Source of the DNA: Lytechinus pictus
Taxonomy: Eukaryota
DNA length: 64,000 nt
NCBI RefSeq assembly: GCF_037042905.1
Contig: NC_087250.1
Span: forward strand, 11,782,001 to 11,846,000
Direction: 5' to 3'
A program made the translations under genes and the position numbers. Positions 1 to 47,200 of this stretch are shown in pieces. Positions within the stretch are counted from its first letter, which is position 1. Every line of letters begins with the position of its first letter. The notes beneath the pieces are model-generated. The model did not search any database. It saw only the letters and a list, made by a program, of their open reading frames with translations, and was not told where the DNA came from.

Positions 1-533
1 TTAACAATGTTGGTTACCTATCTCATACATATCCATTATTTTTAAAAAATAAACTCCTTCGTATGTTTTATATTTATATCTATAACTTAGAAATCTTTAT
101 GTATTAGTTAAATGCCAATGATATACCTTCTGTTATTGCCTCCCTTTAAAAAAAATAGCAGTGTCCATGGATATCCTACTCGGCAAAATAATATTTTTAA
201 TCTTCCTCGTGTAAGAACTTCGTTTGCCAAAACGAATATCACTTTTACAGGTCCACAATACTGGAATGCCCTCCATAATGAACTATTACATTCACCCTCA
301 ATATACTGTATATATATATATATATCCTTTTTTGCCTCTCTTAGCAATAATTATTTCCATGCTACTACAGGCTCTAATTCAATTTGTTGCTTTTTCACTT
401 ATTATTTTTACTCATTATTTATGTATTTGTGTATCCCCCGTTTTTTTAACTTTTTTGTTTGCTCTTTTATTTATTCCTCTATTTTTCTTGTGGTATTGAT
501 ATTTTTATGGGACTCTCACTGCATATTCTTTGG
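1..533 (+). mobile_element. 3' fragment of a CR1/L2-group LINE (ORF2 C-terminus and 3'UTR), interrupted at 534 and continuing at 5741-6012
   Basis: HGYPTRQNNIFNLPRVRTSFAKTNITFTGPQYWNAL is a typical LINE ORF2 C-terminus; the 3'UTR resumes after the TGG TSD and ends AATAAAC(TTGAAC)n. Confidence 0.7.
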
Positions 534-2049
534 TAGTCCAGTAGATATGTGAAAAAGATGCTCGAATCTGGCAGAAAGTGTGAAATTTGGCATACAGGGG
601 TATTTTTGGGCGCTGATTTAAAAAATTGCCGGCCCCAAGCGATTTGACCATCGGGTCGGCCGCCATTTTGAAATCCAAGATGGCCGCCATGATAAATCAT
701 TAAATGTCAATTTCTTGAGTTTTACATGGCATGTGACACTGAAATTTTGCATATAGGGGTATTTTGAGGCACTGATTTCAAATATTGCCGCCCATCAGCA
801 ATTTGACCATTTGGTCGGCGGCAAAATGGCCGCCATCTTGAAATCCAAGATGGCCGCCTTGATATATCATTGCAATCATTTTCTCGAGTTTTATATGAAC
901 TGCGGTATTAAAATTTTGCATATAGGCTTAATTAGGGGTGCTGATTTCAAATATTGCCGGCCCCAAGTATTTTGACCATCGGGTCGGCCGCCATTTTGAA
1001 ATCCAAGATGGCCGCCCTGAGAAATCATTAATGTCACTTTCTTGAGTTTTACATGACGTGTGACACTGAAATTCGGTATGTTGGGATATTTTTAGGCACT
1101 GATTTTAAATATTGCCTCCCCCCAGCAATTTGACCATTTGGTCGGTGGCTAAATGGCCGCCATTTTGAAATCCAAGATGGCCGCCATGAAAAATCATTAA
1201 ATGTCATTTTCTTGAGTTTTACATGATATGTGACACTGAAATTTGGCAAATAGGGGTATTTTGAGGCACTGATTTCAAATATTGCCGGCCCTCAGCAATT
1301 TGACCTCCAGGTCAGCGGCAAAACGGCCGCCATCATAAAATCCAAGATGGCCGCCATGAAATACCATTGCAATAATTTTCTTTAGTTTTGTATGAGCTAT
1401 GGTATTGAAATTTAGCATATACAGTGTAGGTGTAGTTTAGGGCACTTATTTCAAATAGTCTTACCACCAGGTCAGCCGCCACCTTGAAATCTAAGATGGC
1501 CGCCATGAAAATCACTAAAAATCATTTTCTTCAATTTTACATGTGCTCTGAACTTTGGCAAATAGAGTACTTATTTTGGGGTGCCGATTTCAAATATTGC
1601 CAGCCACAAGTGCTCTGACCATCAGTTCAGCGGCAAGATGGCTGCCATGAAAAACCATATCAAAATAATTTTCTTGGATTTTACATTATATATGACACCA
1701 AACTTTGGCATACAGAAGTACGTGGCACACCGGGTTTCGGCAAAATGACCGCCATGAATTAAAAGCAATGATAATTGTCTTGAGTTTTACATGAACTCTG
1801 GCCCTGAAAGTTGTCATATAGGCATATATTTAGGCACTGATTATTGTCAGACCCCTGTTTGGTTGCCATTTTGAAATACAAGATGGCCGCCATGAAAGAT
1901 AATTTGCTCAAGTCTTACGTATGGCCTTTAACACTTTGAATTTGGAGAAAAACTTGATCTTTGCATCCTTGATCAATGAAAAAAAACATTAAGTAGATGC
2001 TATTTTGAATTCTAATATGGTTACCAAGTTTGAATGATGTACAACATTA

Positions 2050-4533: not shown

Positions 4534-5830
4534 TGTTTTTCATCAAACTGGTGTTTCTGGTCCAATAAATGGTTTCCAGTAGATTTTTACTGGTTTCCAA
4601 TATATGTTTACTGGACCAGTTGATTTTTAACTGGACCAGTAAAAATCAACTGGAGACTAGTTCAAACAATTGCATTCCAGTTGAAGCAAAGTAGTAATAC
4701 CAGTTAAATTGTTTTTCATCAAACTGGTGTTACTGGTCCAATAAATAATGACTTTATTTCAAGTCAGATCATTTGACGAATTATGGAAAATGAATCTTGC
4801 AATTCAGAGAAAGTTATTATCGATATCATTGTTATCATCATTCTTCTTATAATTATCATAATGATTATTATTATGATTATTATGATCATTGTTGTCATCA
4901 TTCTTATTACTGTTATCATTGTTATCGATATTGCAAATGGCGGCTGACCCGATGGTCAAATCGCTTGAGGCCGGCAATATTTGAATTCAGCACCCCGAAT
5001 TAAGCCTATATGCCAAATTTCAGTGTCACATATCATGTAAAACTGAAGAAAATGACATTTCAATGATTTTTCATGGCGGCCATCTTGGATTTCAAAATGG
5101 CGGCCATTTAGCCACTGACCAAGTGGTCAAATTGCTGGGGGCCGGCTATATTTGAAATCAGTGCCTAAATATACCCCAACATACCAAATTTCAGTGTCAA
5201 ACGTCATGTAAAAACTCATGAAAATTACATTAATGATTTCAAAATGGCGGCCATCTTGGATTTCAAAATGGCGGCCGACCCGATGGTCAAATCATTTGGG
5301 GCCGGCAATATTTAAAATCAGCACCCCAAATTAAGCCTATACGCAAAATTTCAATACTGCAGTTCATATAAAACTCGAGAAAATGATTGCAATAATATAT
5401 CATGGCGGCCATCTTGGATTTCAAGATGGCGGCCATTTTGCCGCCGACCAAATGGTCAAATTGCTGATGGGCGGCAATATTTAAAATCAGTGCCTCAAAT
5501 ACCCCTATATGCCAAATTTCAGTGTCACATGCCATGTAAAACTCAAGAAATTGACATTTAATGATTTATCATGGCGGCCATCTTGGATTTCAAAATGGCG
5601 GCCGACCCGATGGTCAAATCGCTTGGGGCCGGCAATTTTTGAAATCAGCGCCCAAAAATACCCCTGTATGCCAAATTTCACACTTTCTGCCAGATCCGAG
5701 CATCTTGGCCATTTTTTGTCACATAACCGCTCCACTATGGGGCCTTTAACCAACAAGCTCTGCTTTTACTTTTGGCTTCTCATATCCACATCTCTCATTG
5801 TCTTTCTTTCTTTGTCATTATTTAACAACC

Positions 5831-7134: not shown

Positions 7135-7709
7135 GCATAATATTTCACAAAACGTATCTATCTGAAAAATATCAAATATACATCTCTATATGAACAATTG
7201 ATGAGCATAAACATAGTTCAAAATATCATAAATCGTTACTAAATACTTAAAAAAAAAAAATTGACATAGTTAAGTGACGAATTCATTGTAGTTTTGAGAG
7301 CCATGATATGAATAACCTATTATTGTAGAAAAGTGCATTGAAAATGCCGGTTATTGCCTATCCTAAAAAAAGGATGAAATAAAATTAAGGAAGAATAAAA
7401 AAATATCTCGTAAATAACATGAATTCACTTTCATCATACCTTCATAACCACCTTCTTACAAACACTGTGGAAGATTTATTTCATTTCAACGCAACCCAAT
7501 ATAACAACGTGGACAACCATTCCACATAATATAACATGATAACTATAAAAACATAGAAAAATATATAATTTGTATACGTGCTTTTTGAAACCCTGTATAG
7601 ATTATGGTCATTCACACACTTGGCGATGTAGGCCTTTTTCTTTATTTTGCTTTAACTGTAATATCTCCTTTATTTTCTTCTTCTCTGTTTTTCTTACATG
7701 ACTTCAAAT

Positions 7710-7876
7710 TGGGCGTTGTGGCGTGCGCCTGTAATCCAAGCTATGTGGGGAAGTTACAAATTGATGCAGAGGTTCGAGCCCTAGTCACGTCTTTCGGATG
7801 GTAACATTAAAGATCGGTCCCAGACGTAAATAATCATATCTGATTGATACACGTCTGACAAAACTAAAATACACAC
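7710..7876 (+). mobile_element. SINE with a 7SL(Alu-domain)-like head, B-box, conserved central domain and (AC)n tail
   Basis: Head GGGCGTTGTGGCGTGCGCCTGTAATCCAAGCTA; B-box GGTTCGAGCCC at 7771; GTCTTTCGGATGG...TTAAAGATCGGTCCC; candidate TSD ACTTCAAAT/ACTTGAAAT. Confidence 0.7.
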
Positions 7877-8099
7877 ACTTGAAATATCCAAGGAGATGAG
7901 TGCCCGAATTATGGGGACACATGTATGTGTGCCCCACTACAATACCTTGTGGTAAGATTCGTCGTTTCAAAACTGAATCACTGAAAACTATCGTCAAAAG
8001 AAAATGTTCCAAATAATTATGAAACAATCTATCATGAAAAATACGGAACAAGATCCAACAAATTTATAACATTTCACTACCCCTCATTTCTCAACTTTT

Positions 8100-9060
8100 T
8101 TTTTCAACATGTTTTTATTAAGGATTTTATTAAAATAAATTCAGGATAAATGCAAGAAAATTGAGAAATCTTCATTTTACATCAACAAGAAAATACAAAT
8201 ATGTTTACAAAAAATTGAATTTTATAGGGACGGAATGAAAAAACCTTAAAAATATATATTTTGTAAATAAAGAAAATGAGCTTAGCCCCGATCCTCTATA
8301 TAGTTAACCTAATAATACATGAAATCAATATTGAATGATTTGCAGAAAAAAATAAGTATAATCATTGTTCCCTATTTTATTTTCAGCTGCCACAAAAAAC
8401 ACGTACATTGACATATACACCCATACACACACACGCAGCCAAAATACCCACCCACTTACACAAATATTAACAAACACATACAAATATGTTCATGGACATT
8501 TAATTTTGACATAAGGTACAGAAAGAATGAAATCTGCAAATCAGATTGACACAAGAGAAGGGGATATCGAAAAGAAATAGTACGAAATCAATCATGAAGA
8601 GTCACACCAAAAATAAAACTCACACCACACTAGACACATCCTACCTGTTCACATTTAAATATCTATTCACCTTCAATGTATCCCATTTCTGTTTTAGTAA
8701 GTAAACTAATCTTGCTTGGCTTTGATGCCAAGCGACTTTCTTCCTCTATGCAACCCGTAATAAATGTATTTTGGTGAAAGAAGGTACCCGGCCTCCAGCT
8801 CTAGAATTAAAAATGGCATATTTTATTAAAAAAAAAAACAGAATTAACACTATTAGAATGTCCAGGTAGTCCTAAGAAAATATCCTTCCAATTTATAGTT
8901 CTTAATTCAATTAAACAGAAATGATCAATACAAAATTGCCACAGAGGTTTAACTTTCATACAATGCATCAATATATGAAAGTATAATTCAGTTTGTGTAC
9001 GACAAAATGAGCAGTAATTATCCCAACAAAACAAAATCTCTTCAAATGTTCTTTTGTATA
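8100..9060 (-). mobile_element. L1/Tx1-clade LINE 3' fragment
   Basis: CSFCRTQTELYFHILMHCMKVKPLW is a C-terminal CCHC zinc knuckle; AATAAA and an A-rich tail near 8100-8120. Confidence 0.65.
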
Positions 9061-10568: not shown

Positions 10569-10606
10569 TCACCCTCACACATATACACACACCCTCACAC
10601 ACACAC

Positions 10607-10795
10607 GATAGCTCAGTCGGTAGAGCGGGGGATTCGTATTCCGGTGACCCGGGTTCGAGTCCCACTTGGTGCGCTAGTGCCCTTTGGTAAGGCATTAATC
10701 CTCAGTACCAGGTCCTTCGGAGAGGACCTTAAGCCGTCGGTCCTCTGGTTGCTTGCTTACAAGCATTCATACTTTCTTAGCAATCAGGTACAAAA
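10607..10795 (+). mobile_element. tRNA-derived SINE
   Basis: A-box TAGCTCAGTCGG, B-box GGTTCGAGTCC, then GTCCTTCGGAGAGGACCTTAAGCCGTCGGTCC; flanked by microsatellites. Confidence 0.8.
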
Positions 10796-26200: not shown

Positions 26201-29200
26201 AATAAATATATACATTTTAACGATTTTTGCTCTACAAGTCTGATTTGGTTAATGATAGCAATATTGACTGGCCTGGGGGCAAAAGGACATATATCGCCCT
26301 CACTAAATTGATATCACCCTCGTCTACGACTCGGGCGATATAAATAGAGTTTGGGCGATATATGTCGTATCGCCCCGAGGCCAGTCAATATTGCTTTATT
26401 GTTGCAAATTCATTATGGCCCGAATTCACAAAGGTGGTTTTGAAAACCCACGGTTGAATCCATTGTTTATGCAGATTTCCTGTATAAATTACGCTTAATT
26501 TAGCGCGTATCGGCGCGTGTATAAAAAATGTCAAATGCTAATGCGCGCTTTTTGTCACAGTGCGCCAAATTTACGCCTGTTACCATGGTTAGATACGCTA
26601 TTTTATTAATGAGTCCACTGTTTGAAGAGTGGACTCATGATTAAAAACATTGGAATTATGAATAAAATAGCGTGGATAACCACGGCAACAGGCGTCAATT
26701 TGGTGCACTGTGACAAAAGCGCGCATCAGCATTGGACATTGTTTATACATGCGCCCTATACGCGCTAAATTAAGCGTAATTTATACAGGAAATCTGCATA
26801 AGCCATGGATTCAACCGTGGGTTTTCAAAACCACCTTTGTGAATTCGGGCCAAGTTTTAGGAAACGGGTCCTTGGTTGTAAACTGACCTGCGCCATGCAA
26901 GTGTCAAACAGCAGCACAGCGCAGTGGGTATCTGATTATCAGTCATTTAAAAACACGCACATCTTGTAGGCCTATATAGACCGTCTATTAGCATTATCCA
27001 GATTTGGTCTAGATTGGTTAGTTTCTTAAATATGGAATTCATGTGTATGGAAATCTAACTTAAAGAGGAATATCAAATAAATATATCAGTGTGTCTTTAG
27101 AGAACACAATACAGAAATATACATTACCAGGTTTCCTTTCGGAAGCATTTGGTGCACAGATTAACCAGGTTTTGAGAAAGTATAGATTAGATTATTTGCC
27201 CGAGGTTTGACAGTTAATTTTTGTAGTTTTGTAATATACCACAGCAAAGACCAGGGTTGCGGAAGCGGGGGGGGGGGGGGGGGGGGGGGCTGGGGGCCCC
27301 CACTTTTTTCCGAAACCGTGTACAAAAACGTAAAATTTACCATATGTCTTGTCCAAGTGATTGTCTGTTGACACACTCCTGAACCCATGTTTTTTTTATA
27401 CAGCAGGGGTATGATATAATGTTTTTTTGTTAATTGTAACATAGTAGGCATACTTTTTTCCGAAACCGTGTACAAAAACGTAAAATTTACCATATGTCTT
27501 GTCCAAGTGATTGTCTGTTGACACACTCCTGAACCCATGTTTTTTTTATACAGCAGGGGTATGATATAATGTTTTTTTGTTAATTGTAACATAGTAGGCA
27601 TAAAAAGCTGGACCCCACTAGTATTCCTTTTCATTGTACAAACCTTTTTAATTTACGATTTGAATTTCATTGATCAAAGTGGATCTGAAAAAATTGTGAA
27701 CCCTTAACAAACCCTGAAAATATCTGAAAGTACTTTGACCTATGTTATTGGCCTTTGACAAGTGATTTTCTCAATGACTTTGCTGGCATGGAGCTTCTAC
27801 CTTCAGATTATCCGATTGATGTTATTTTAACTTATTAGGACACACAATATAGTCTTAATCTTTTTCTTTGACGCATGCAAGTGGATCCACAATTTAAAGA
27901 ATGGTTGGTGTTAATTTGAATCGCTCTGATGATTTTTCTGACATCCTAATCAACTCACTCTCCAACTACAAGCTCTACATCCTGAAAAGATCCGTCAGTA
28001 TTTTGACCTATGTTATTGGCCTTTGACAAGTGATTTTCTCAATGACTTTGCTGGCATGGAGCTTCTACCTTCAGATTATCCAATTGATGTATTTTAACTT
28101 ATTAGGACACACAATACAGTCTTAATCTTTTTCTTTGTTGACGCATGCTAGTGGATCCACAATTTAAAGAATGATTGGTGTTAATTTGAATCGCTCTGAT
28201 GATTTTTCTGACATCCTAATCAACTCTCTCTCCAACTACAAGTTCTACATCCTGAAAAGATCCGTCAGTACTTTGACCCATGTTCTTGGCCTTTGTATTT
28301 GGAACTCTATATATGACTTTCCTAGCAGAGAGCTTATACCTTTATTATCCAATAGATGTTATGGTAACTTATTAGAACACACAATGGTCTTAATCTTCCT
28401 TGTAGTTGATGCTACCCGTAAACGGATCCACAATGTTAACACAAGGTGAAATGTGAATGCTTACTCCCTATGTATCAGCAATTACGGTTCTCTAAGTTAA
28501 ATTCTATACTTTAGCCTTTTGATTGATAGCACTGTTAAACAATTTGAATAAACAATTAATTATCAACGGGTAATCGTAATAAGGCCAACGTACAGGAGTA
28601 TAGTCTTATAAAATAACAAAATTAACTCACTTCATTAACATATTTATCATATCTATTGCAAGCCGTATTTGTATTAGTTCTTTAAAAAAAAAACTTATTT
28701 TCATTCCTTTTTTTTTTTCCTTTTTTTCCCCCTTTTTTTCCCCCCTTTTTTTTTTTTTTTTTTATCTCGGTCTCGATACCGTTATATTAAATGGTTGTAC
28801 AATATCCATGTGCTTTATGTAAGTTAGCCGTTAAGAGAAATCATAAAGGTCTTTTGTGCACTTCGTGTGACAAATGGGTACATATATCTTGTGCCGGCGT
28901 ACCACTGAACTTGTACAATAATGTATCCCATCATTTTAATAACTGGGAATGCCCTAGGTGTATTATGCAAAATTTGCCATTCTTTGACTTTGATATTGAT
29001 GTAACCGGTAAGGCTAATGATGTTCATGGTAAGCATGGATCTGCCCAATGTAACGATTCTCTTACATGTGACTTTATTTACTCGTGCCTTTCAGGTAAAG
29101 GAATTAAATTTACTCAGTTGAATGTAGTGAGTCTTTATAAACATATCGATGAGATACGCACTATCTTGAGTTGTAATGACATACATTTACTTGCTCTCAA

Positions 29201-32200
29201 TGAAACGAGACTTGATGCGTCCATAACTGATAATGAAATAGAAGTTTCACATTACAACATTGTTCGTAAAGATAGGAATAGGTTAGGCGGTGGTGTTTCA
29301 TTTTATATTCATGAAAGTGTAAAGTTCAGTATAATTGAGGATTCTCCTATGTCAGATTTTGAAGCCATACCTGTTGTCATAAATATAAAAAATTCTAAAC
29401 CAATAATGCTCTTAAATTGGTATCGACCGCCGAATTCTGAGTCTGATATTTTGAACCATTATGAAAACTTTTCGGAATATTCGGAAACTCTAGACTGTCA
29501 TCTTATTATCATGGGTGATATCAATCTTGATATATTGAAAGAGGTTGACGATTGTACCACGAGACGATATAAGCAGATTAACAACGTATTCTCATTATCT
29601 TTTGTCAATACTACTGAATGTACCAGAGTTACAAGTCAATCTGCCTCTCTTATTGATCACATGCTAACTAACAATAGTTCTATGATTAAGTCCTCTGGTG
29701 TCATACATAATGGTGTTAGTGACCATTCGATGAGCTATCTCGTTTGAGATCCCATCATACTCATTCTGGTGTCAAGTATTGTACCTACAGGAAATTGAAA
29801 GATGTTGATATCAATAAGTACAAGTCTGATTTAACTCAGCAAAACTGGATTGAGGTTGAGTCGGAAAATGATATCGATAAAGCTACTGATAAATTTGAAA
29901 AGATGTTCCTAGAAGTTGTAAATACACATATGCCTCTTAAGACAAAGAGGGTTCGAAAAATGCAATCACCATGGATAAACGAAAGTATATTTCAAGCAAT
30001 GAAGAAAAGAGACATGGCTAAAACAAAGGCTATCAAAACCAAAAATGAGAATTTTTGGAAAGATTATCGTGTATTAAAGAATAAAGTATCATCTCTGATC
30101 AAAAAGGCTAAGAAAGATTATTATACAGAACAACTAACCAAAGATAAAAATTCGAATAATTCATGGAAAACATTATCTTCTTTGTTACCCAAGAACATTT
30201 CTTCGTCTCCACCTCAATCCAGTCAAAGTCAAACCATGGCCAACCAATTTAATCAATATTTTGCAAATATAGGTAATTTGTTGAACCTGGCCTCTGCGAC
30301 AGAAAAAGACTTAGTGCATGATGAAAACGTTACTGGTATGGCAGTTGAACATCCATTGAAACTTTGTACTGTAAGTCAAAATGATATATTGAAAGAAGTA
30401 CTACAACAAAAAAATAAGAAATCCGTGGGTTTAGACGGAATACCCATTCATATCCTAAAAATGTCCATAAATGAAATTATACGTCCAGTTAGCTATCTTA
30501 TGAATGAATCCATCGTTCAAGGTGTCTTTCCAAAGAAATGGAAAATTGCCAAAGTTATTCCGTTACACAAAAAAGGTGATCGATCAAATCCTAATAACTA
30601 CAGACCGATTTCTATTCTTTCTTGTTTATCGAAGGTTCTTGAAAGATTAATCCATAAACAGCTCGTACAACATTTAAATTGTAATAACATTATCACTTTG
30701 GACCAATCAGGCTTCCGTCCTAAACATTCTACCTCAACCGCCCTAATCAAAGTCACGGATGATTGGTTAATAGATCTTGATGATGGAAAATACACTGGTG
30801 CGGTCTTCATTGACCTCCAAAAAGCTTTTGATATGGTTAACATTCAATGTCTACTTGAAAAACTTAAAAGAGCTGGGATTAAAGAAACGAATTTGAACTG
30901 GTTTCATAGCTACCTTTCAGACAGAAAAATTGTAACATGTATTCATAACTGCAACTCTGAAGAATTACCAATCAAGCAAGGGGTTCCTCAAGGATCGATA
31001 CTAGGTCCGCTGCTTTTTATAATTTTTATTAATGATTTACCTACTATTTTCAAGTCATGCAACATCCATCTCTATGCAGATGACACTGTGATTTACTTTT
31101 CTCATAAAGATCCCCACGTAGTTCAATCAACGTTAAATAGAGAGTTGCTCATTCTTGATAGATGGATGGACATGAATAGACTTAAAATTAATTATGACAA
31201 AACAATGTGCATGCTTTTTGGAAATAGACATATGCTAAAAAAACACAATGGATTAGATTTAAGAATTGATGGTCATACCATCAAACAAGTATCTTCGCTG
31301 AAATACTTGGGTGTGTATATTGATTCAGAACTGAAATGGGATGTTCATGTTAACCACTTAAGTGAAAAGGTGGGTCGAATGATTTCGTTCCTCCGTAGAT
31401 TAAGTAAATTTATCAATAGGAATAGTTTGAAAATTATCTATCAGAGCGTTATACTACCCAACTTGGATTATGCTGATGTAATATGGCAATCTTCCTATGA
31501 CAAATATACAGATCAGCTACAAAAGTTGCAAAATAGAGCTGGTAGAATTATCCTTAATTATAATAATCGGTCACATGTTTCTATTGACTCAATTCATGAA
31601 ATAATGGAATGGCAAACCCTGAAGTCTAGGCAAAACTTTCATATTCAAACAATGATGTTTAAGATCCTCCATGATTTGGCTCCCAAATATCTAACAAAAT
31701 ACATATTTTACACCTCAAGACCTTACCATTTTCGAAAAAATAATTTGTGCCTCCCCAAACCCAGAACTAATTATTGCAAACGCACATTTTTCTATAGGGG
31801 GACTAAGTTGTTTAACAGTATCCCAAATAATATTCGTAATTGTATGACCTTAAATTCTTTTAGATCAGCGTTGTCACATTTGAGACATTGATTTCTTTTT
31901 TTTGGGGGGGTGGGGTAGTGGGGTAGGAGTAAGCAAACTGATAGTGATTTTTTTTTTCTCTCTCCTTTCCTTTTCTTTCTTCCTTCATTTCCCTCTTTTG
32001 TCTTTTCTTTTCTGTTCTCATTTTCCGCTCCCTATGACTCTCTTTTTACTTGGTCCCCATGGAAGACCAGCCGCACATATAATTGGTGCAGCTGAATATG
32101 GGTTATCCAACCGTCTCCTGTCTTAAGTTTGATCTTTTAACTTTCTTAACATGTTTCAATCAATCATTTTTTTTTCTTTTCTTTTTTTTAATCAATGTTT

Positions 32201-35200
32201 AGAATTTATTTCATTATGTATGTGTATGTTACTCCTTGTATCTCTTGTTTATATATTGTTATGTATTTTTTTATGACGGAAATAAAACAAACAAACAAAC
32301 AAACAAAAGTTATCTAATTAACTATTTATTGCAAAGAACCCATACTAACAAGCTTTGCTTTCCAGTAGGTTCCCTTTTTTCATTTCTGTATATTATATTT
32401 TTTGTGCTTTGCTATACATTGTAACTTTTGTTAAATTTTTGAATGAAAAAGAATAAATGCAATCAATCAATCATATGATTGTGATTTTTTGCATGGTCAG
32501 CCCCCACTTCGAAAACCGTTCCGCGGCCCCTGAAGACCCCGCGTTTGAAATCCTGGGTCAACCCCTGCTTAGTAATTCCTACCGATGAAAGCTCCTGGGT
32601 AAATTTCGTCTCGAATTCCACTTTCGCATCTTGGCCAATCTGTTTTAGAATGAATGTAGTTTCATCTTTGACGCATACACAATCTTTGGCCTTCCATTCA
32701 TCACAAAGTCGCTGAAAAGAGAAAAGTATACGTATACTGTAACTTATTATTAGTATCATTATTATCGTGATTATTCATATCATTATTTTATATTATTTTT
32801 CAAAACATATAGAATACAAAATTACAAACAAATCGAAGAGAAGATCAATTACAATTTTACATGAAAAAGAAAATTAGACCTGGGTCCCGTAACACAAAGT
32901 TTAGCGATTAATCGCTAATTGAAATTGCCTATCAAGATCATTGTTGCATGCGCATTTTGCTCCGTAGACTGACTAGGAACCAATCAGAATTGTTCTTTCA
33001 AATTAGTGATTAATCGCTAACATTTGTGTTACGGAGCCTGGAAGAGCGTTGGAGTGGCTGCAATTGTTTGTAAAAGGCTATTCCAATAACCATAACCCAT
33101 GGGTCCTCCTCCCAATATACATGTATATAGTATATTCATAAACATATTTGTATACTACATTAATTAAATCCCGTATATTGATTGGTTTAAATAGCATCAC
33201 ATGACCAAACATATCCTAGCTATGCTGTTGAAACAAAAGGCTCATGAAGAAAATGTGCAATTCCGTGCGGTTAGTGATGGAATAGTGCACTATTCCATTG
33301 GAAATGATGCAATATCTCGGGCGCGCCGATCTAGTACGATCTGATACGATCATTACAATTATTACAATATTAAGATCACCATTAACACTCGTGGCGCAAA
33401 TCGTAAAACGTATGGTTGAACTATGAGTACTATTATCAAGATCCGTTGTTATGAAACAAAAATGTACCAGGACTTTATGTACCAGGACTTTATTTCAAAA
33501 GTATAGATGGAATTATTCACCCCCTTTTGTATCTGATTTTATGTTTCAAACTGCTCTTAAATCAACTTTGCAATGGAAATTCCTAGAAGGACTCATACAA
33601 TTTTTCCTTTCTCCTTAAAAGAATTTCAAAATGGAAAGTGGAGGTTCGATATCTCATAAACCATCATCTCATAACAATGTTTAGTCAATAGAACTAGTAA
33701 TTTGGACCGGCCATAAGGAAGTCTATTTGCTTATTGATGTTGTTTTTGTCGGCTTAAATACATAATTGGATAGCGGTAGTTTTCAGCGAATCATTTGATT
33801 AATTAATATCACCATGTTCACCTGTCCTAGTTCACCAAAGGGGAAATAGAACTGCAAATGAATAATGGGTCTCCTGTTTTTCGGCATCTCGCTTGGCAGA
33901 AAAGCTAGCATGGCCACTCTTTTTCCTACACACATGTCATCCTTCATCGAGGCTGTGTACAATCCGGGTTTGTCCAAGTTGAAAAGCAGCTTGTCTTTCG
34001 TGATGGTGCATTCGGAAGGAGACAGTTCCCGACGAGAAACGCCTCCTCCCCCTGTTAGGTGGAAGATACACAATCAAGAAAAGCGCAGTGGTTTCATGTC
34101 AATCGTTGGAACATACAGGAAATAAGGTGCTAAAGCCAAATAAAGTGCCGATTTAGCACTTTATTTGGCTTTAGCACCTTATTTCCTGTATGGAGCTCGT
34201 ATAACGTGCTGTGACGTACCACATTAAACACCGTAAGCGCTGGAAATCAGCACCTAAACTGCAGTCACCATACCGCCTGCCTGAAGTGCTGATTTAGCAC
34301 TTATTCTTAAAAATATTTTTTGGTTATGTATTATTTTTTAGATTGAGGGAGGAAGTGAGGGGAAACCCATTAGTCGGGATTATTTACACTTTAATGCTTC
34401 TGTACTTCTTGTCTTCAATAATATTATCAACAATGAGCAATAAAATAAGGTTAATCGGCCCTAACTACTGCAAAAACTCTGGTGTTGATTTAACACCAGC
34501 CCGAAATCTATATATGTCCACACCAGATAAGTGTTAAACAACACCAGTTTCGTTTTGGTCTAACACCAGATTTAATTAATTAATTAATTAGTATTAAAAC
34601 AACATCGGCTCGATTCCAAACTGGTGTTGTTTCAATACTTCTCTGGTGTGGACATATATAGATTCCGGGCTGGTGTTAAATCAATACCGGAGTTTTTGTA
34701 GTGACAAATATATATTTTTTTAAGTACGTTCAACTGAAAGGTAAATCGTACCTTCGGTGTGATCAGAACCTTTCTCTGACTTGTGATAAACAACCACCTT
34801 TCCTTTCCCTTCAAGAGCAGCCTGCGAAAGCTCTGCACAGTGGCTCAAAATCATCTCAACCGGGCTTCCTTCGAAGTTTCCACCGACGTTGACAGTTGGA
34901 CAAATTGCTACATCATCTGTTTCGGAAACTCCTTCCATGAGGTCGGCTGATGAGATGCCAACTTTAAAGAAGGTGGAAATGGAGGTTGCACATGTGCTTA
35001 AATAACCTGACACCCTAATTTGTTTCATGCGTATTTTATTCAGTGCAACAATCTTACTATTCATTGCGTTTTAGATCAGGGCCCCGTCTTACAGAGATAC
35101 GATTGATCCAATCAATCGTATCTCTTTGGAAATCCATCAGTGTCATAATTTTGTCTTTCAGGAAATGTGCAAAATGACCTTAGTAAACGAAGGAGAACAC

Positions 35201-38200: not shown

Positions 38201-41200
38201 TTGAAACCAGTGGTTTAGACATGAAAATCACATATCCCAGGTCAAAATGAAATGAGCTTTGTCCGCTTTAAGTATTAGCAGCCATTTCAGAATCATTTTT
38301 TGAAATCCATCGGGGATTTTTGCACATACCAGACCACTGACTTTCCTTGTAACTTATCCCAATGTATTATTTGACCCATTTAACCATGGTAGAGACACAA
38401 AAATCATATTTCTGGACATTGAACAAACTATGTCGGATTTTTTTAAGTAGCAACAGCAATTTTCGACTCCATTTTTGGAAGCCATCTTTGATTTTTTAAC
38501 ATACTGCACCACTGACTGTCCTTGTAACTTGTCCCAATGTCTTATTTGACCATTGAAATCATGGTCTAGTCACCAAAATCATTATGTCCCAGGCGAATAT
38601 GAAATGAACTTTGTCCATTTTAATTATCAACAGCCATTTTAAACTCCATTCTTGGAAGCCATCTTGGATTCTTGGACACACCAGACCACTGGCTGTCCTT
38701 GTAACTTGTTTCAATGTACTATTTCACCCTCAAAACCATTGAATAGAAAACAAATTTAGATGAATTGTGGATTTTCAGCCTACAGCAGCCATTTTGGGCG
38801 CCATCTTGGATTTGCCTGGTACACTGGAGGGCTTATAATTCATTCTAGCCTATATCAATTTTTTTACCCCCAGACCATGGAATATGAACCGAATTAGTAT
38901 TCTATGGTGGATAATGTGTCATTTGTATCCATTTTCAGTGAATGGCGGCCATCTTGGACGCCATCTTGAAAATAACCACTTTCCCGTATGCGGATTTTGG
39001 TAGATTTTTAGTATGTTATTCCTGAGGTCAAATAGTACAAAATACCGTTGAAAAATCATTTGTTGCAATTTGTTCCGGGTAAGGCTATTTTTGGTCGTAT
39101 ATTGACCCGTCTATATAATAGATTCCGGGCTGGTGTTAAATCAACACCGGTGTTTTTGCAGTGCACTGTTCCCAGTATCTGGAATAGTCTCCCTGTCAAT
39201 ATCCGTTCATGTTCTTCATTACGAGTATTCAAAAATAATCTAAAAAAACCCCATATCTGTTTCAAAATAATACCCCTTCATATATATTTTTTGGTAAGCA
39301 CTTGGAGAGCAGAATATTACTCTTTTTGTCATATAAAGCGCTTTGAGCATGATAATGGAAAGTTGCTATATAAATATTTAATGTATGTATGACAGAGTAT
39401 CCCTTGCCAGCCAATCCTGAACCTCTTCCTAGTTTAGAATTTGCAAAGATCATGGACATCTTCGAAAGATCAAAGCTAGGATGTCATGAAATATCAAGGG
39501 GGTTTTCGTAATCACTACGCATGCAGACGCTTTTTCCTTTTGTCAAAAACCCTACAAAATGAAAACAGGCTCTGTCGATAATCAGTGAATTAAAACAGCA
39601 GTGTCGTCTTGGTGGGTGTTTCATGAAATTTGTCATCGGTGATTAAATCCTTGGTTTTTAATGGGCTAAGGAGCACTGTTCCCTAACTATTACTGTGGTA
39701 TATCACTCTAAATACCGAGGATATAAAATAAAACCAGATCGGCTGTGAATAGTGACCAGCCGAATTTAGAATTTGTTTTAAATCTTAAGGATTGACTTTT
39801 AATTCAAAAATATTTAAATTCATTTTTTTTTTTTTTTTTATTCCAATCAACAAGGTTTAAATCTAAATTTAATATTCGGCTGTTCTCTATTCACAGCCGA
39901 TCTGGATTTATTTTAAATCCTTGGAATTTAGAGTGTAACTGTGGGAGAGAGAGACAGCGTGCCAGTGTTGCCAACTTTGATGAACCGGTCCCTCTGGCTC
40001 CGGACAAATGACAAATGTTCGTCCAGCCCAAATCTTCAAATGATCTGCTGTCCCTATCCACCAACTCCCCCCCCCCCCAAAAAAAAAAAAAAAACCCTCT
40101 CAGTTGTCCATTGTTATTTGAATCAAATTTTCGAAGGGATTGGTGCGTTGTAGAAAGCGTGTTCGTAGTGATTTCGAAAACTCTCTAACAATCGTGGGGG
40201 GGGGGGGTTGGGACTTACTCTTGATGCCGTGGTCTTCCGATGGATCGGTCAGACGAACTTCGATAGAGATCCCCATTTGCCTATTTTCGTAAAGGCCATA
40301 CGAAATACCTTCCTTCCCAATTGTTTGATACGCCGTAGGTTCCTCAAAATCGACTTGGACAGTGCCTTAAAAGATAAAGGAATCATTCTTCAAATCGTCT
40401 CTCAAAACTCAATACTTCAGCAGACAATGGCAGATGTGTAGTAATAATTATGTTTTTAACAGAATTATGGCGCGATATAAATGATGTGGATTATCATCAT
40501 CATAATTATTATTCAAAATTGAGAAGATGAATAATCATGATAATAATAATAATAATAATGATAATAATAATAATTACAATAATAAGGTTGCTCTATACCA
40601 AAATCAGTTCATGTGTTAAACCAAACTTACCCCGACCCGAAGCATGACTTTAAGGACGTTCCACAATTAAGTTTGTGCGCATTATGACGTGCTTTGACGT
40701 CATAATTCATACATAGGTGATTGATTAGTTTTAGATATTTTCCCTTGATCTGCATTCTAAAATGAGATCAGATGAGCTATTTTGTATTATATTGAAGGTG
40801 ATTTGCTGAAAATAAGTTATGAACCCAATGTATAAATACCTCTACATTTTCATAATACCTTACTCTGCATTGGTGGAAATTTTAAAGAACAAGACATCGA
40901 TTTTGAATGAATGGTAAGATATTTTAAAATGTTTCCTCACATAGATGTAAAGCATTTGGCGTGTTTTTGTTTTAAAAAAAAACCACTTGTTCCAAAAGTG
41001 CTGTTTAAAACACGTAAATGAACCCCCTTTTTTGCTGACACATATTAAGTAAACCCTTTTCTACAACTTTGCAGTTTTGAAAAAAAGTGATGCATTTATT
41101 GTACTTTGCAAATATATTATGAAAAAAAAAACCTTTAGAGATAGGTCTTTGTGATCTTTTGGCATCATTCATAGCACTTTAAGATGCTACTAGCCTTAAA

Positions 41201-44200: not shown

Positions 44201-47200
44201 ATTTTTTGTCATTTTTTCCCAAAAATTTAACATTTTGCAAATACATGATTTTACATAATTCTAAGAAAAATTAATAAATTACCTTGAAATATTTCAGAAA
44301 ACTTTATTGATAAACTATTATTATGTCGATGAAATTCCAACTCTCTATCATTGTTTTTAGCAAAATTATAAGGTATCAAACTTGAATACTTCAATTTCAG
44401 AAATGCCACTTTTTGTATGCATTTCCATAGACTAATACGTATAACATGAATTATACATGTATGTATAATGTTTAGTTCAAAATTAAATGCAATTATCTCC
44501 GCTTTTTAACCACTTGGAGATTAAGAGTATGCTTTTCTCTATCAGATACATAAAAAAATGTTGGCACATCAAGGTCTGACCCTCTCATGGGGGTGGGGGT
44601 GTCGAAGTCACCCCCTGCCCTTGGCCATATCATGTTGTTGTATATTGCCTATTTGTTGGAAATAAATACTTTTTTTTTGGAGCACCCATTAAGGCAAAAA
44701 CAGGCATATCTGCTATATCCCCAACAGCCACTTTGATTGCTTTGAAACTATTTTCAGAGGAAAGAGTAGGCCTTGTTCTGCCAGCTACATCTAAAGAAGT
44801 GGCACATCGAAGCCTACCCCTCTCGGGGGGGGGGGGGGGGCTTTTGCTTAATTTTGCCAATTTATTTGAAAATTCACAATTTTTGACCCAATATTGAGGC
44901 CAAAAAGCGTTTGTGCTTTGTTGTACACCCCATTTTATTGATTTAAAACCACTTAGAGAGGAAAGAGTAGGGTTAGTTCTACCAGCTACATAAGCGCGGA
45001 CACATCGAACCCTAGCCCTCTCAGGGGCTGTCTAAGTCAACCCACCTTCTATATCATGTATATTACCGATTTATTGGATATTTCACAATTTTGGATCACC
45101 CATTGAGGCAAAAGCGCGTTTCTTCTATGAAGTACAGCCAATTTTATTTTCTAGCAATGACTTCGAGAAGAAAGTAGGCTTTGCTCTATCAGCTACATAT
45201 AAAGAAGTGTTGGCAAATCGAAGCTTATCCCCTTCAAAATGTTCAGGGGGGGGTAAGAATTTATCCCTTCAATTTCCGGTATTTGACTATTTGAAGAGCT
45301 CACTTGCAAAAGGGGTTAGGACCATTTTTCATCAAATTTGATTTTTTTTGTCTCAATGTATAGATTTTTAGTAGCTCTATAAGATGATACCAAAGAAAAG
45401 TTGAAATTCCCATTAAAAAGTGATCTAAAATGGCAAAGAAAAATCACTTTTTTTTCAAACCTCTAAACCTCTAAATTTTTAGCCATTCTGATGAAAACAG
45501 CGAAAATTTGAAATTCACATGAAAACATGAATAAAAGTGGCAAAGAAAAATCAATCTTTTAATCAAAAGAGATTGGATTCATTTCAGTTTAGTTGCAAAA
45601 GGGGTTAGGTCCACAATGATAATTTTTTCTAAAATATATAGAAAAAATTGAAGACAGGTAGATTTCTTTTATACCAAATTTTATGTTCATATGATAGGGT
45701 AGTACATCATGGCAATTTAGTTTCTCATAAGAATGTTGCAATAAGTGAGAATAAAAAACATGGTTTTTCTCGGAATGGTCCAAAGTGGACCTAACCCCTT
45801 TTGCAACTAAACTCTTCATATAGAGGGGGGGGGGTTGACTTAGATAGCCCCTGGGAGGGGTAGGTTTTGATGTGCCAGCGCTTCTTAATAATATGTAAGT
45901 GATAGAGCAAAGCCTACGCTTTCCTCTCCAAGTAATTGCAAAAAAAATAAAATTTGCTATATGATATATAGTAGAAACGCCCTTATGCCTCAATGGGTGA
46001 CCCAAAATGGTGAATTATCCAATAAATCGGTAATATACATGATATAGAGGGGGGGGGGGTGACTAAGACAGCCCATAAGAGGGCTAGGGTTTGATGTGCC
46101 AGCGCTTATTTATATGTAGCTGGTAGACAAATCCTACTCTTTCCTCTCTAAGTGGTTTAAAATCAATAAATTGGGGTGTACAACAAAGCACACACGCTTT
46201 CTGGCTCAATGTTGTGTCCAAAATTGTGAATTTTCAAATAAATTGGCAATATTTAGCAAAGCCATCCCCCCCCCCCCCCGAGAGGGGTAGGCTTCGATGT
46301 GCCACTTTTTTAGATGTAGCCAGTAGAACAAAGCCTACTGTTTCCTCTCCAAGTAGTTTCAAAGCAATCAAAGTGGCTGTACTGTATATAGCATATATGC
46401 CTGTTTTTTCCTCAATGGGTGCTCCAAAAAATCAGTATTTTTTCCAACAAATAGGCAATATACAACAACATGATTTAGCAAAGGGCAGGGGGAGGGTGAC
46501 TTTGACACCCCCACCCCATGAGAGGGTCAGACCTTGATGTGCCAACATTTTTTTTATTTAGCTGATAGATAAAAGCCTACTCTTAACTCCCCAAGTGGTT
46601 AAAAAGCGGAGATAGTTGCATATAATTTTGAACTATACATTATACATACATGTATTATACATGTTATACGTATTAGTCTATGGAAACGCATACAAAAAGT
46701 GGCATTTCTGAACTCGAAGTATTCAAGTTTGATACCTTATAATTTTGCTAAAAAGAATGATACAGAGTTGGAATTTCATCGACATAATAATAGTATATCA
46801 ATAACGTTTTTGAGAACATTTCAAGGTAATTGATTTATTATTCTTAGAATTATGTAAAATCATGTATTTGCAAAAAAAAAATCAATTTTTGGGAAAAATG
46901 ACAAAAAAAATCAAGTTTTCTACTTAAAATCTCAGCCAAATGACCTACTTATCCCCTTTAAATAGTACCAAATTGTAGGAAATTTATTTGTCTTTCATAT
47001 GACACTAATTTTTGTTGCAATGGAATGTTTATGTCAAAATCTATGTACGAAAATTCAAATGTTATGAAAAGTTGGCGGCCATTTTGAAAAAGCGCCCTCA
47101 CTGGTCAATTTTAAGGGTACAGCCTGGTTACCTCATATATTCATATTTAGCGTACAAAACTGGTCTAGAAGCACTATATGAACATTTCTCCTTTTCCGTG

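Follow-up and report, generated by a model that had tools for sequence, protein, structure and literature searches.

A SINE-like element that probably combines a 7SL-like 5' Alu domain, a tRNA-type B box and a LINE-type 3' hairpin

The element at positions 7710-7876 of the window (the whole 64,000-nt stretch of DNA analysed, which is repeat-rich and A+T-rich, with 35.7% G+C) is best read as a SINE in which the 5' domain of 7SL is joined to a tRNA-SINE-type segment with a B box and to a LINE-type 3' hairpin. We hold this reading with moderate confidence. Its best-supported part is the head, whose likeness to 7SL is, at the level of sequence, real, statistically supported and well beyond chance. 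The unit of head and body recurs, with the same ends, in a different sequence context, where the database protein P0123 represents a second copy. The length of the element lies within the range given for SINEs (~80-500 bp; PMC4758252). The features of the element are as follows.

7710-7876 (+): whole SINE-like element, 167 bp, with a direct repeat at its borders; P0123 aligns with 7871-7713 and diverges past both ends
7711-7757 (+): 7SL-derived head, corresponding to the 5' Alu domain, with helix 3 at 7711-7730, the U-turn linker at 7731-7734 and helix 4 at 7735-7751
7758-7770 (+): variable linker from head to B box; the window copy and P0123 differ here, including a length difference of four codons (12 nt)
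7771-7781 (+): tRNA-type B box GGTTCGAGCCC, a putative Pol III internal promoter element, read directly and kept in P0123
7782-7820 (+): body, conserved in P0123 (residues 26-35)
7821-7857 (+): 3' stem-loop, the presumed recognition element for a LINE reverse transcriptase, located in the block best conserved in P0123
7858-7878 (+): A-rich stretch and (AC)4 terminal repeat, read directly; the final AC overlaps the direct repeat
7701-7709 (+): candidate target-site duplication, upstream copy, 8 of 9 positions identical to 7877-7885
7877-7885 (+): candidate target-site duplication, downstream copy ACTTGAAAT, 8 of 9 positions identical to 7701-7709

Similarity of the head to 7SL RNA was assessed with a permissive Rfam cmscan of positions 7600-8000. 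Metazoa_SRP (RF00017) matched 7708-7765 with an E-value of 5.3e-5 and a score of 26.0 bits, which is far under the Rfam gathering score of 70. Scaled to the full 64 kb (x ~160), we estimate that this E-value becomes ~0.008. The aligned part, 7708-7757, spans the first 46 consensus positions of the model (helices 2-4), of which 33 are identical, and it contains an unbroken 12-nt identity at 7726-7737 that includes the U-turn motif; after these 46 positions, 250 model positions are skipped. When only 7711-7743 is compared with the Rfam consensus, 28 of 32 positions are identical. The 7SL-like 5' end that had been proposed from the letters alone is thus borne out by the covariance search. No Rfam family matches anywhere in the window at the gathering threshold, which is expected because the alignment covers a 46-position fragment of a 299-position model. 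Over 7600-8000, the 3' part of 7SL and its S domain gave no match in the RF00017 scan.

The only other Rfam match below an E-value of 1 over this interval was to mir-1268 (28 bits, E 0.0032). We take mir-1268 to be an Alu-derived miRNA family, and its match would therefore report the same signal as that of Metazoa_SRP. A match to Yar_2 (E 8.2) was set aside as noise. The tRNA models gave no match at E <= 10 over 7600-8000, and ARAGORN identified 0 tRNAs in the whole window. A head that is 7SL-like and not tRNA-like is accordingly the reading supported by these sequence comparisons.

Pairing within the head was assessed against the helices of the Rfam model. Helix 3 is formed by 6 bp (7711-7716 with 7725-7730) and is present in the MFE fold, in agreement with the earlier claim that the first helix still pairs. 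Across helices 2-4, 12 of the 14 modelled pairs are standard. Helix 4 is missing from the MFE fold, where an alternative pairing takes its place; the Alu-type fold reaches -5.8 kcal/mol vs -14.6 kcal/mol for the MFE fold, and thus lies 8.8 kcal/mol above it. The helix-4 region also appears to be more diverged in the second copy. Folding of the whole element is not better than that of shuffled sequence (z -0.44).

Downstream of the head, the tRNA-type B box reported at 7771 was found as GGTTCGAGCCC at 7771-7781. It fits the B-box consensus, GGTTCGANNCC, lies 52 nt past the A-box-like stretch of the head, and is conserved in P0123, where its antisense translation reads LGLEP. The element contains no run of four T, and no T4 terminator is found within ~200 nt downstream of it. 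The B-box module probably derives from an older tRNA-derived SINE. One such SINE lies elsewhere in the window, at 10602-10790 (+), between (TA)n and (CA)n microsatellites, and matches the Rfam tRNA model with 23.2 bits (E 0.019). The P0123 stretch adjoining the B box weakly resembles the T-arm/anticodon-side region of this element at 10630-10665 (8 of 12 residues, E 2.0). The SINE core domain that the sequence-only reading had seen in the body found no support. The best local score of the body against 10602-10790 was 18, and 62 of 500 shuffles equalled it. A likeness between the two noticed by eye (TTCGGA..TTAA..TCGGTCC) was dropped, as the alignment is non-significant.

At the 3' end, a 13-bp interrupted stem-loop occupies 7821-7857, with the arms CAGACGT and ACGTCTG and a 6-bp inner stem. 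It folds with an MFE of -13 kcal/mol (z -2.92), a value matched by 1 of 200 shuffles. The same region forms the longest identical block shared with the second copy (16 residues, P0123 11-26). This stem-loop was absent from the earlier list of features. The (AC)n tail that had been described there is present as an (AC)4 run at 7871-7878, and the likeness to P0123 ends near 7871.

The element is flanked by a direct repeat that had been proposed as a 9-bp target-site duplication with one mismatch. The repeat itself is present (8 of 9 positions), but its weight was gauged with a random-placement control in this window, in which 962 of 20000 placements of a 167-nt segment (4.8%) had a repeat of at least 8 of 9 positions within +/-4 nt of both ends. 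Because 4.8% of random placements equal it, the repeat 7701-7709/7877-7885 is weak evidence that stands near chance level and counts little alone.

A partner LINE was sought among the LINE sequences of the window. Neither the full LINE at 28791-32304 nor the LINE fragments show any likeness to 7710-7876, and the tails of this LINE and of the fragments 112-552 and 39036-39392 do not resemble the tail of the element. The LINE itself, at 28791-32304 (+), is near full-length and has two overlapping frames, one with a PHD finger and endonuclease (28791-29747) and one with a reverse transcriptase (29723-31891), followed by a (CAAA)n tail near 32283-32308. In a search with its reverse transcriptase, the closest relatives, from ENA/Logan, reached up to 66% identity, and the best named match was a sea-anemone protein (36%). 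Matches in the ESM Atlas came from mixed taxa. Among the 79 window ORFs of at least 84 aa, 72 were scanned with Pfam and yielded no domain besides those of the LINE. On inspection by eye, the ORFs 112-552 (+) and 39036-39392 (+) resemble the C-terminal parts of further LINEs, with no Pfam match in either. Several further repeats were noted in the window. One, with the translation ...AAILKSKMAA..., occurs in several copies on both strands (~480-970, 1052-1291 and 5290-5765); two similar ORF-bearing repeats, 44633-45031 (-) and 46127-46534 (+), form an inverted pair ~1.1 kb apart; and the ORF 27164-27652 (-) carries an internal tandem duplication of ~50 codons.

Recurrence with the same ends and the same combination of head and body is what a retroposed family predicts. 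Further copies were sought by way of an antisense ORF, 7788-8063, the last 30 codons of which lie within the element. A HMMER search with this ORF against 1.84 billion representative proteins returned four matches, one of them relevant. This match, P0123, is a protein of 97 aa known as a single sequence from one 571-bp contig, and it matches solely the element-derived residues 60-91 of the ORF (E 2.7e-5). When P0123 was in turn compared with the window by tblastn, its residues 9-65 aligned with 7871-7713 in one frame, with 36 of 57 residues identical (E 3e-17). This alignment takes in the hairpin, the B box and the head, and residues 58-65 are identical at 8 of 8 positions to the antisense translation of the head at 7713-7736. 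The two copies are 63% identical at the translated level, the only level at which the second copy is known (as a translated ORF), and differ by a 12-nt indel. Residues 1-8 and 66-97 of P0123 have no tblastn match in the flanks of the window copy.

From these alignments we read P0123 as a spurious antisense ORF that runs through a second copy of the head-plus-body unit in a different sequence context. Since this copy has the same two ends and different flanks, neither a coincidental likeness confined to one locus nor a chimeric assembly can explain the unit, and the unshared flanks also argue against a DNA-level duplication. The element is therefore not single-copy, and the prediction of a retroposed family is supported. 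A homologue search with P0123 returned P0123 alone among proteins of comparable length (1 of 1 candidate) and nothing among shorter ones, and in the ESM Atlas its best score was 0.79, under the level taken as a lead. The part of the antisense ORF that lies in the flank, 7877-8063 (-), has weak matches to three other proteins, P0121, P0122 and P0124 (E 4e-10 to 3e-5). These proteins are long and mutually unrelated, and the matches fall in repeated stretches of low identity; Pfam finds no domain in this flank, and the matches are probably compositional.

In total, two copies were seen, the one in the window and that represented by P0123. Within the 64-kb window, a search with 20 nt of the head, allowing 3 mismatches at most, found the self match alone (1 of 1), and blastn of 7681-7900 at word size 7 found the self match and 17 chance matches of 11-19 nt. 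Four exact body or tail patterns were also run against collections that are poor in animal DNA, so that these scans say little either way: viral contigs gave 0, 0 and 0 matches, prokaryote genome contigs 0 and 0, and metagenome contigs 0 and then one locus. At that locus (L001, 466-492), 27 nt are exactly those of 7825-7851 and the DNA elsewhere is unrelated and G+C-rich; it was rejected as a coincidence, given the very large size of the collection. Of the 20 sequencing-run entries listed as sharing part of 7400-8200, none contains half of its words and none is an RNA run; these small shares carry no evidential weight here.

These observations bear on several other explanations. The element could be an ordinary tRNA-derived SINE (SINE2) whose 5' 45 nt look like 7SL because A-box-like G+C-rich stems occur in both, or because a tRNA acceptor/D-arm has drifted. 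Its B box is indeed a perfect tRNA-type consensus, the stretch of P0123 beside the B box has the weak resemblance to 10630-10665 given above (8 of 12 residues, E 2.0), and heads derived from tRNA far outnumber the other kinds (PMC7245038; PMC11481361). We nevertheless regard this origin as unlikely. The interval that gives no tRNA match at E <= 10 matches Metazoa_SRP at E 5.3e-5, with 12 unbroken nucleotides across the U-turn, and ARAGORN likewise finds no tRNA, whereas the true tRNA-type SINE of the same window is recognised by the Rfam tRNA model (23.2 bits, E 0.019). A one-off chimeric retrocopy is a rather improbable account: here, a reverse transcriptase would have switched template from the RNA of a SINE or LINE tail to 7SL, and the product would later have been duplicated at the DNA level, with no self-propagating family. 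Two copies are known, a number compatible with such a history, and PMC7245038 lists template switching among the ways in which chimeric retrocopies and SINEs can arise. Yet the copies have no common flank on either side, and the end of the likeness at 7713 and 7871 would be unusual for a DNA-level duplication; a candidate target duplication of its own flanks the window copy, and the 63% translated identity with a 12-nt indel is as seen in old dispersed copies.

Two further readings were weighed. A functional small-RNA gene, such as a truncated SRP-related or BC200-like Pol III transcript that is no mobile element, would account for the well-kept 5' Alu domain and the B box. It is very improbable given that the S domain and the 3' part of 7SL are missing, that the unit has a simple-repeat tail, is flanked by a direct repeat and recurs in another context, and that no T4 terminator follows for ~200 nt. 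An artefact, either contamination with mammalian Alu/B1 or an assembly chimera of a 7SL-like read with unrelated DNA, might be suspected from the match of the head to mir-1268, presumably an Alu-derived family. The same head-to-body junction is found in an independent database contig, that of P0123, and neither the remainder of the element nor its A+T-rich flanks are Alu-like, which makes an artefact extremely unlikely.

A SINE with a 7SL-like head can be compared with a short list of known families. In the accessible text of Kojima 2020 (PMC7245038), 7SL-derived SINEs are described from Euarchontoglires and from one hagfish family only. A 2026 BMC Biology paper (PMC13023118) adds the Urop SINE of the shrew mole as a 7SL-derived lineage, and its available text calls independent 7SL SINE lineages "extremely rare" and states that all of them arose after a central deletion of ~183 nt that spared both ends of 7SL. 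The list of known cases in the sequence-only reading, Euarchontoglires and hagfish, was correct as far as it went and slightly outdated, with Urop missing (PMC13023118). A full-text search of the literature found no SINE with a 7SL head beyond those of supraprimates, shrew mole and hagfish, and none in any invertebrate. The family to which the element belongs may already be catalogued in Repbase, Dfam or SINEBase under another label.

The closest parallel in architecture is SINE1-1_EBu of the hagfish Eptatretus burgeri, which is also found outside mammals. As described in the text available for PMC7245038, it joins a 7SL head to modules of an older tRNA-SINE lineage, and it has a structured 3' end of the LINE-derived type with a short simple-repeat tail that is not poly(A). 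A structured 3' end and a simple-repeat tail are shared by SINE1-1_EBu and 7710-7876, which implies a stringent partner and not L1. The hagfish family differs in that it keeps both the 5' and the 3' regions of 7SL around the central deletion, whereas 7710-7876 has the first ~46 nt only, and in that its partner, RTE-2_EBu, has been identified (PMC7245038). In 7710-7876, a tRNA-type B box takes the place of the 7SL B box. The resemblance of the P0123 stretch beside the B box to the tRNA-type SINE of the window is a weak lead to an origin of the B-box module in a tRNA-derived SINE, which would make the element a 7SL/tRNA-SINE chimera like that proposed by Kojima for the hagfish family (PMC7245038). 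We class 7710-7876 as a variant within SINE1 rather than a standard member, because it has the 5' part of 7SL only and lacks the 3' part.

Other families share fewer of these traits. Alu, FLAM, B1 and PB1 of Euarchontoglires, together with Urop, likewise carry the 5' Alu domain of 7SL at the extreme 5' end and internal Pol III promoter elements; in contrast to 7710-7876, they consist solely of 7SL sequence (5' and 3' parts, with the ~183-nt deletion), end in poly(A) and are mobilised by L1 (PMC13023118). In 7710-7876, the body is not 7SL sequence, a hairpin lies on the 3' side and the terminus is (AC)n. By their description in PMC7245038, the Tu-type SINEs of tree shrews and GarnAlu of the bushbaby also hold 7SL-derived and tRNA-SINE-derived modules in one element, but these are fusions of whole SINE units that descend from a single SINE1 ancestor in Euarchontoglires. 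The central-domain tRNA SINEs of molluscs and other invertebrates resemble 7710-7876 in their plan of head, body and tail, their tRNA-type B box and their microsatellite-like tail; they have target-site duplications of 6-18 bp and stringent LINE partners (CR1-Zenon, L2, Nimb and RTE) (PMC11481361, PMC4758252). They differ in the head, which is tRNA-derived in every case reported in the available text of these two papers, where 7SL is mentioned as background only.

For the SINE reading, we infer a chimeric origin and a life cycle with steps of transcription, protein binding and mobilisation. Transcription by Pol III would start at or near the first base, with the A-box-like stretch of the head and the B box serving as promoter. 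The 3' stem-loop and tail would then be recognised by a 'stringent' LINE reverse transcriptase, and target-primed reverse transcription into a staggered nick would leave a duplication of ~9 bp. The head, once folded, might bind SRP9/14 and so carry the RNA to ribosomes engaged in LINE translation, a route that has been proposed for Alu. According to the available text of PMC12199147, a 46-nt 5' Alu domain is necessary for Alu retrotransposition, suffices for association with SRP9/14 and can promote retrotransposition. The retained 7SL part of 7710-7876 corresponds closely to this domain, and a role for the head in SRP9/14 binding is plausible, by analogy with Alu, because the domain reported as sufficient is the one retained (PMC12199147).

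The wider proposal is that the element represents a further independent birth of a 7SL-headed SINE, with only the ~46-nt 5' Alu domain and with a LINE that recognises a hairpin instead of L1, and that this birth took place outside vertebrates if the source is an invertebrate. We put this forward tentatively, as a serious possibility that falls somewhat short of an even chance. Each new origin of a 7SL SINE has been used as an argument for the function of the Alu domain in retrotransposition. If the proposal is true, the element would be a natural replicate showing that SRP9/14-mediated ribosome docking benefits SINEs irrespective of the LINE clade that they exploit, and that they can do without the 3' half of the Alu domain. 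A family that has the 5' domain only and a stringent LINE would provide a test of whether evolution selects the same minimal 46-nt domain as HeLa assays define (PMC12199147), and of whether the benefit of the Alu domain is independent of L1. It would also mean that annotation pipelines that sort invertebrate SINEs by their tRNA heads can miss other types of head. Should a genome-wide search confirm the family, it would constitute a further independent origin of 7SL SINEs, one with an unusual, minimal head.
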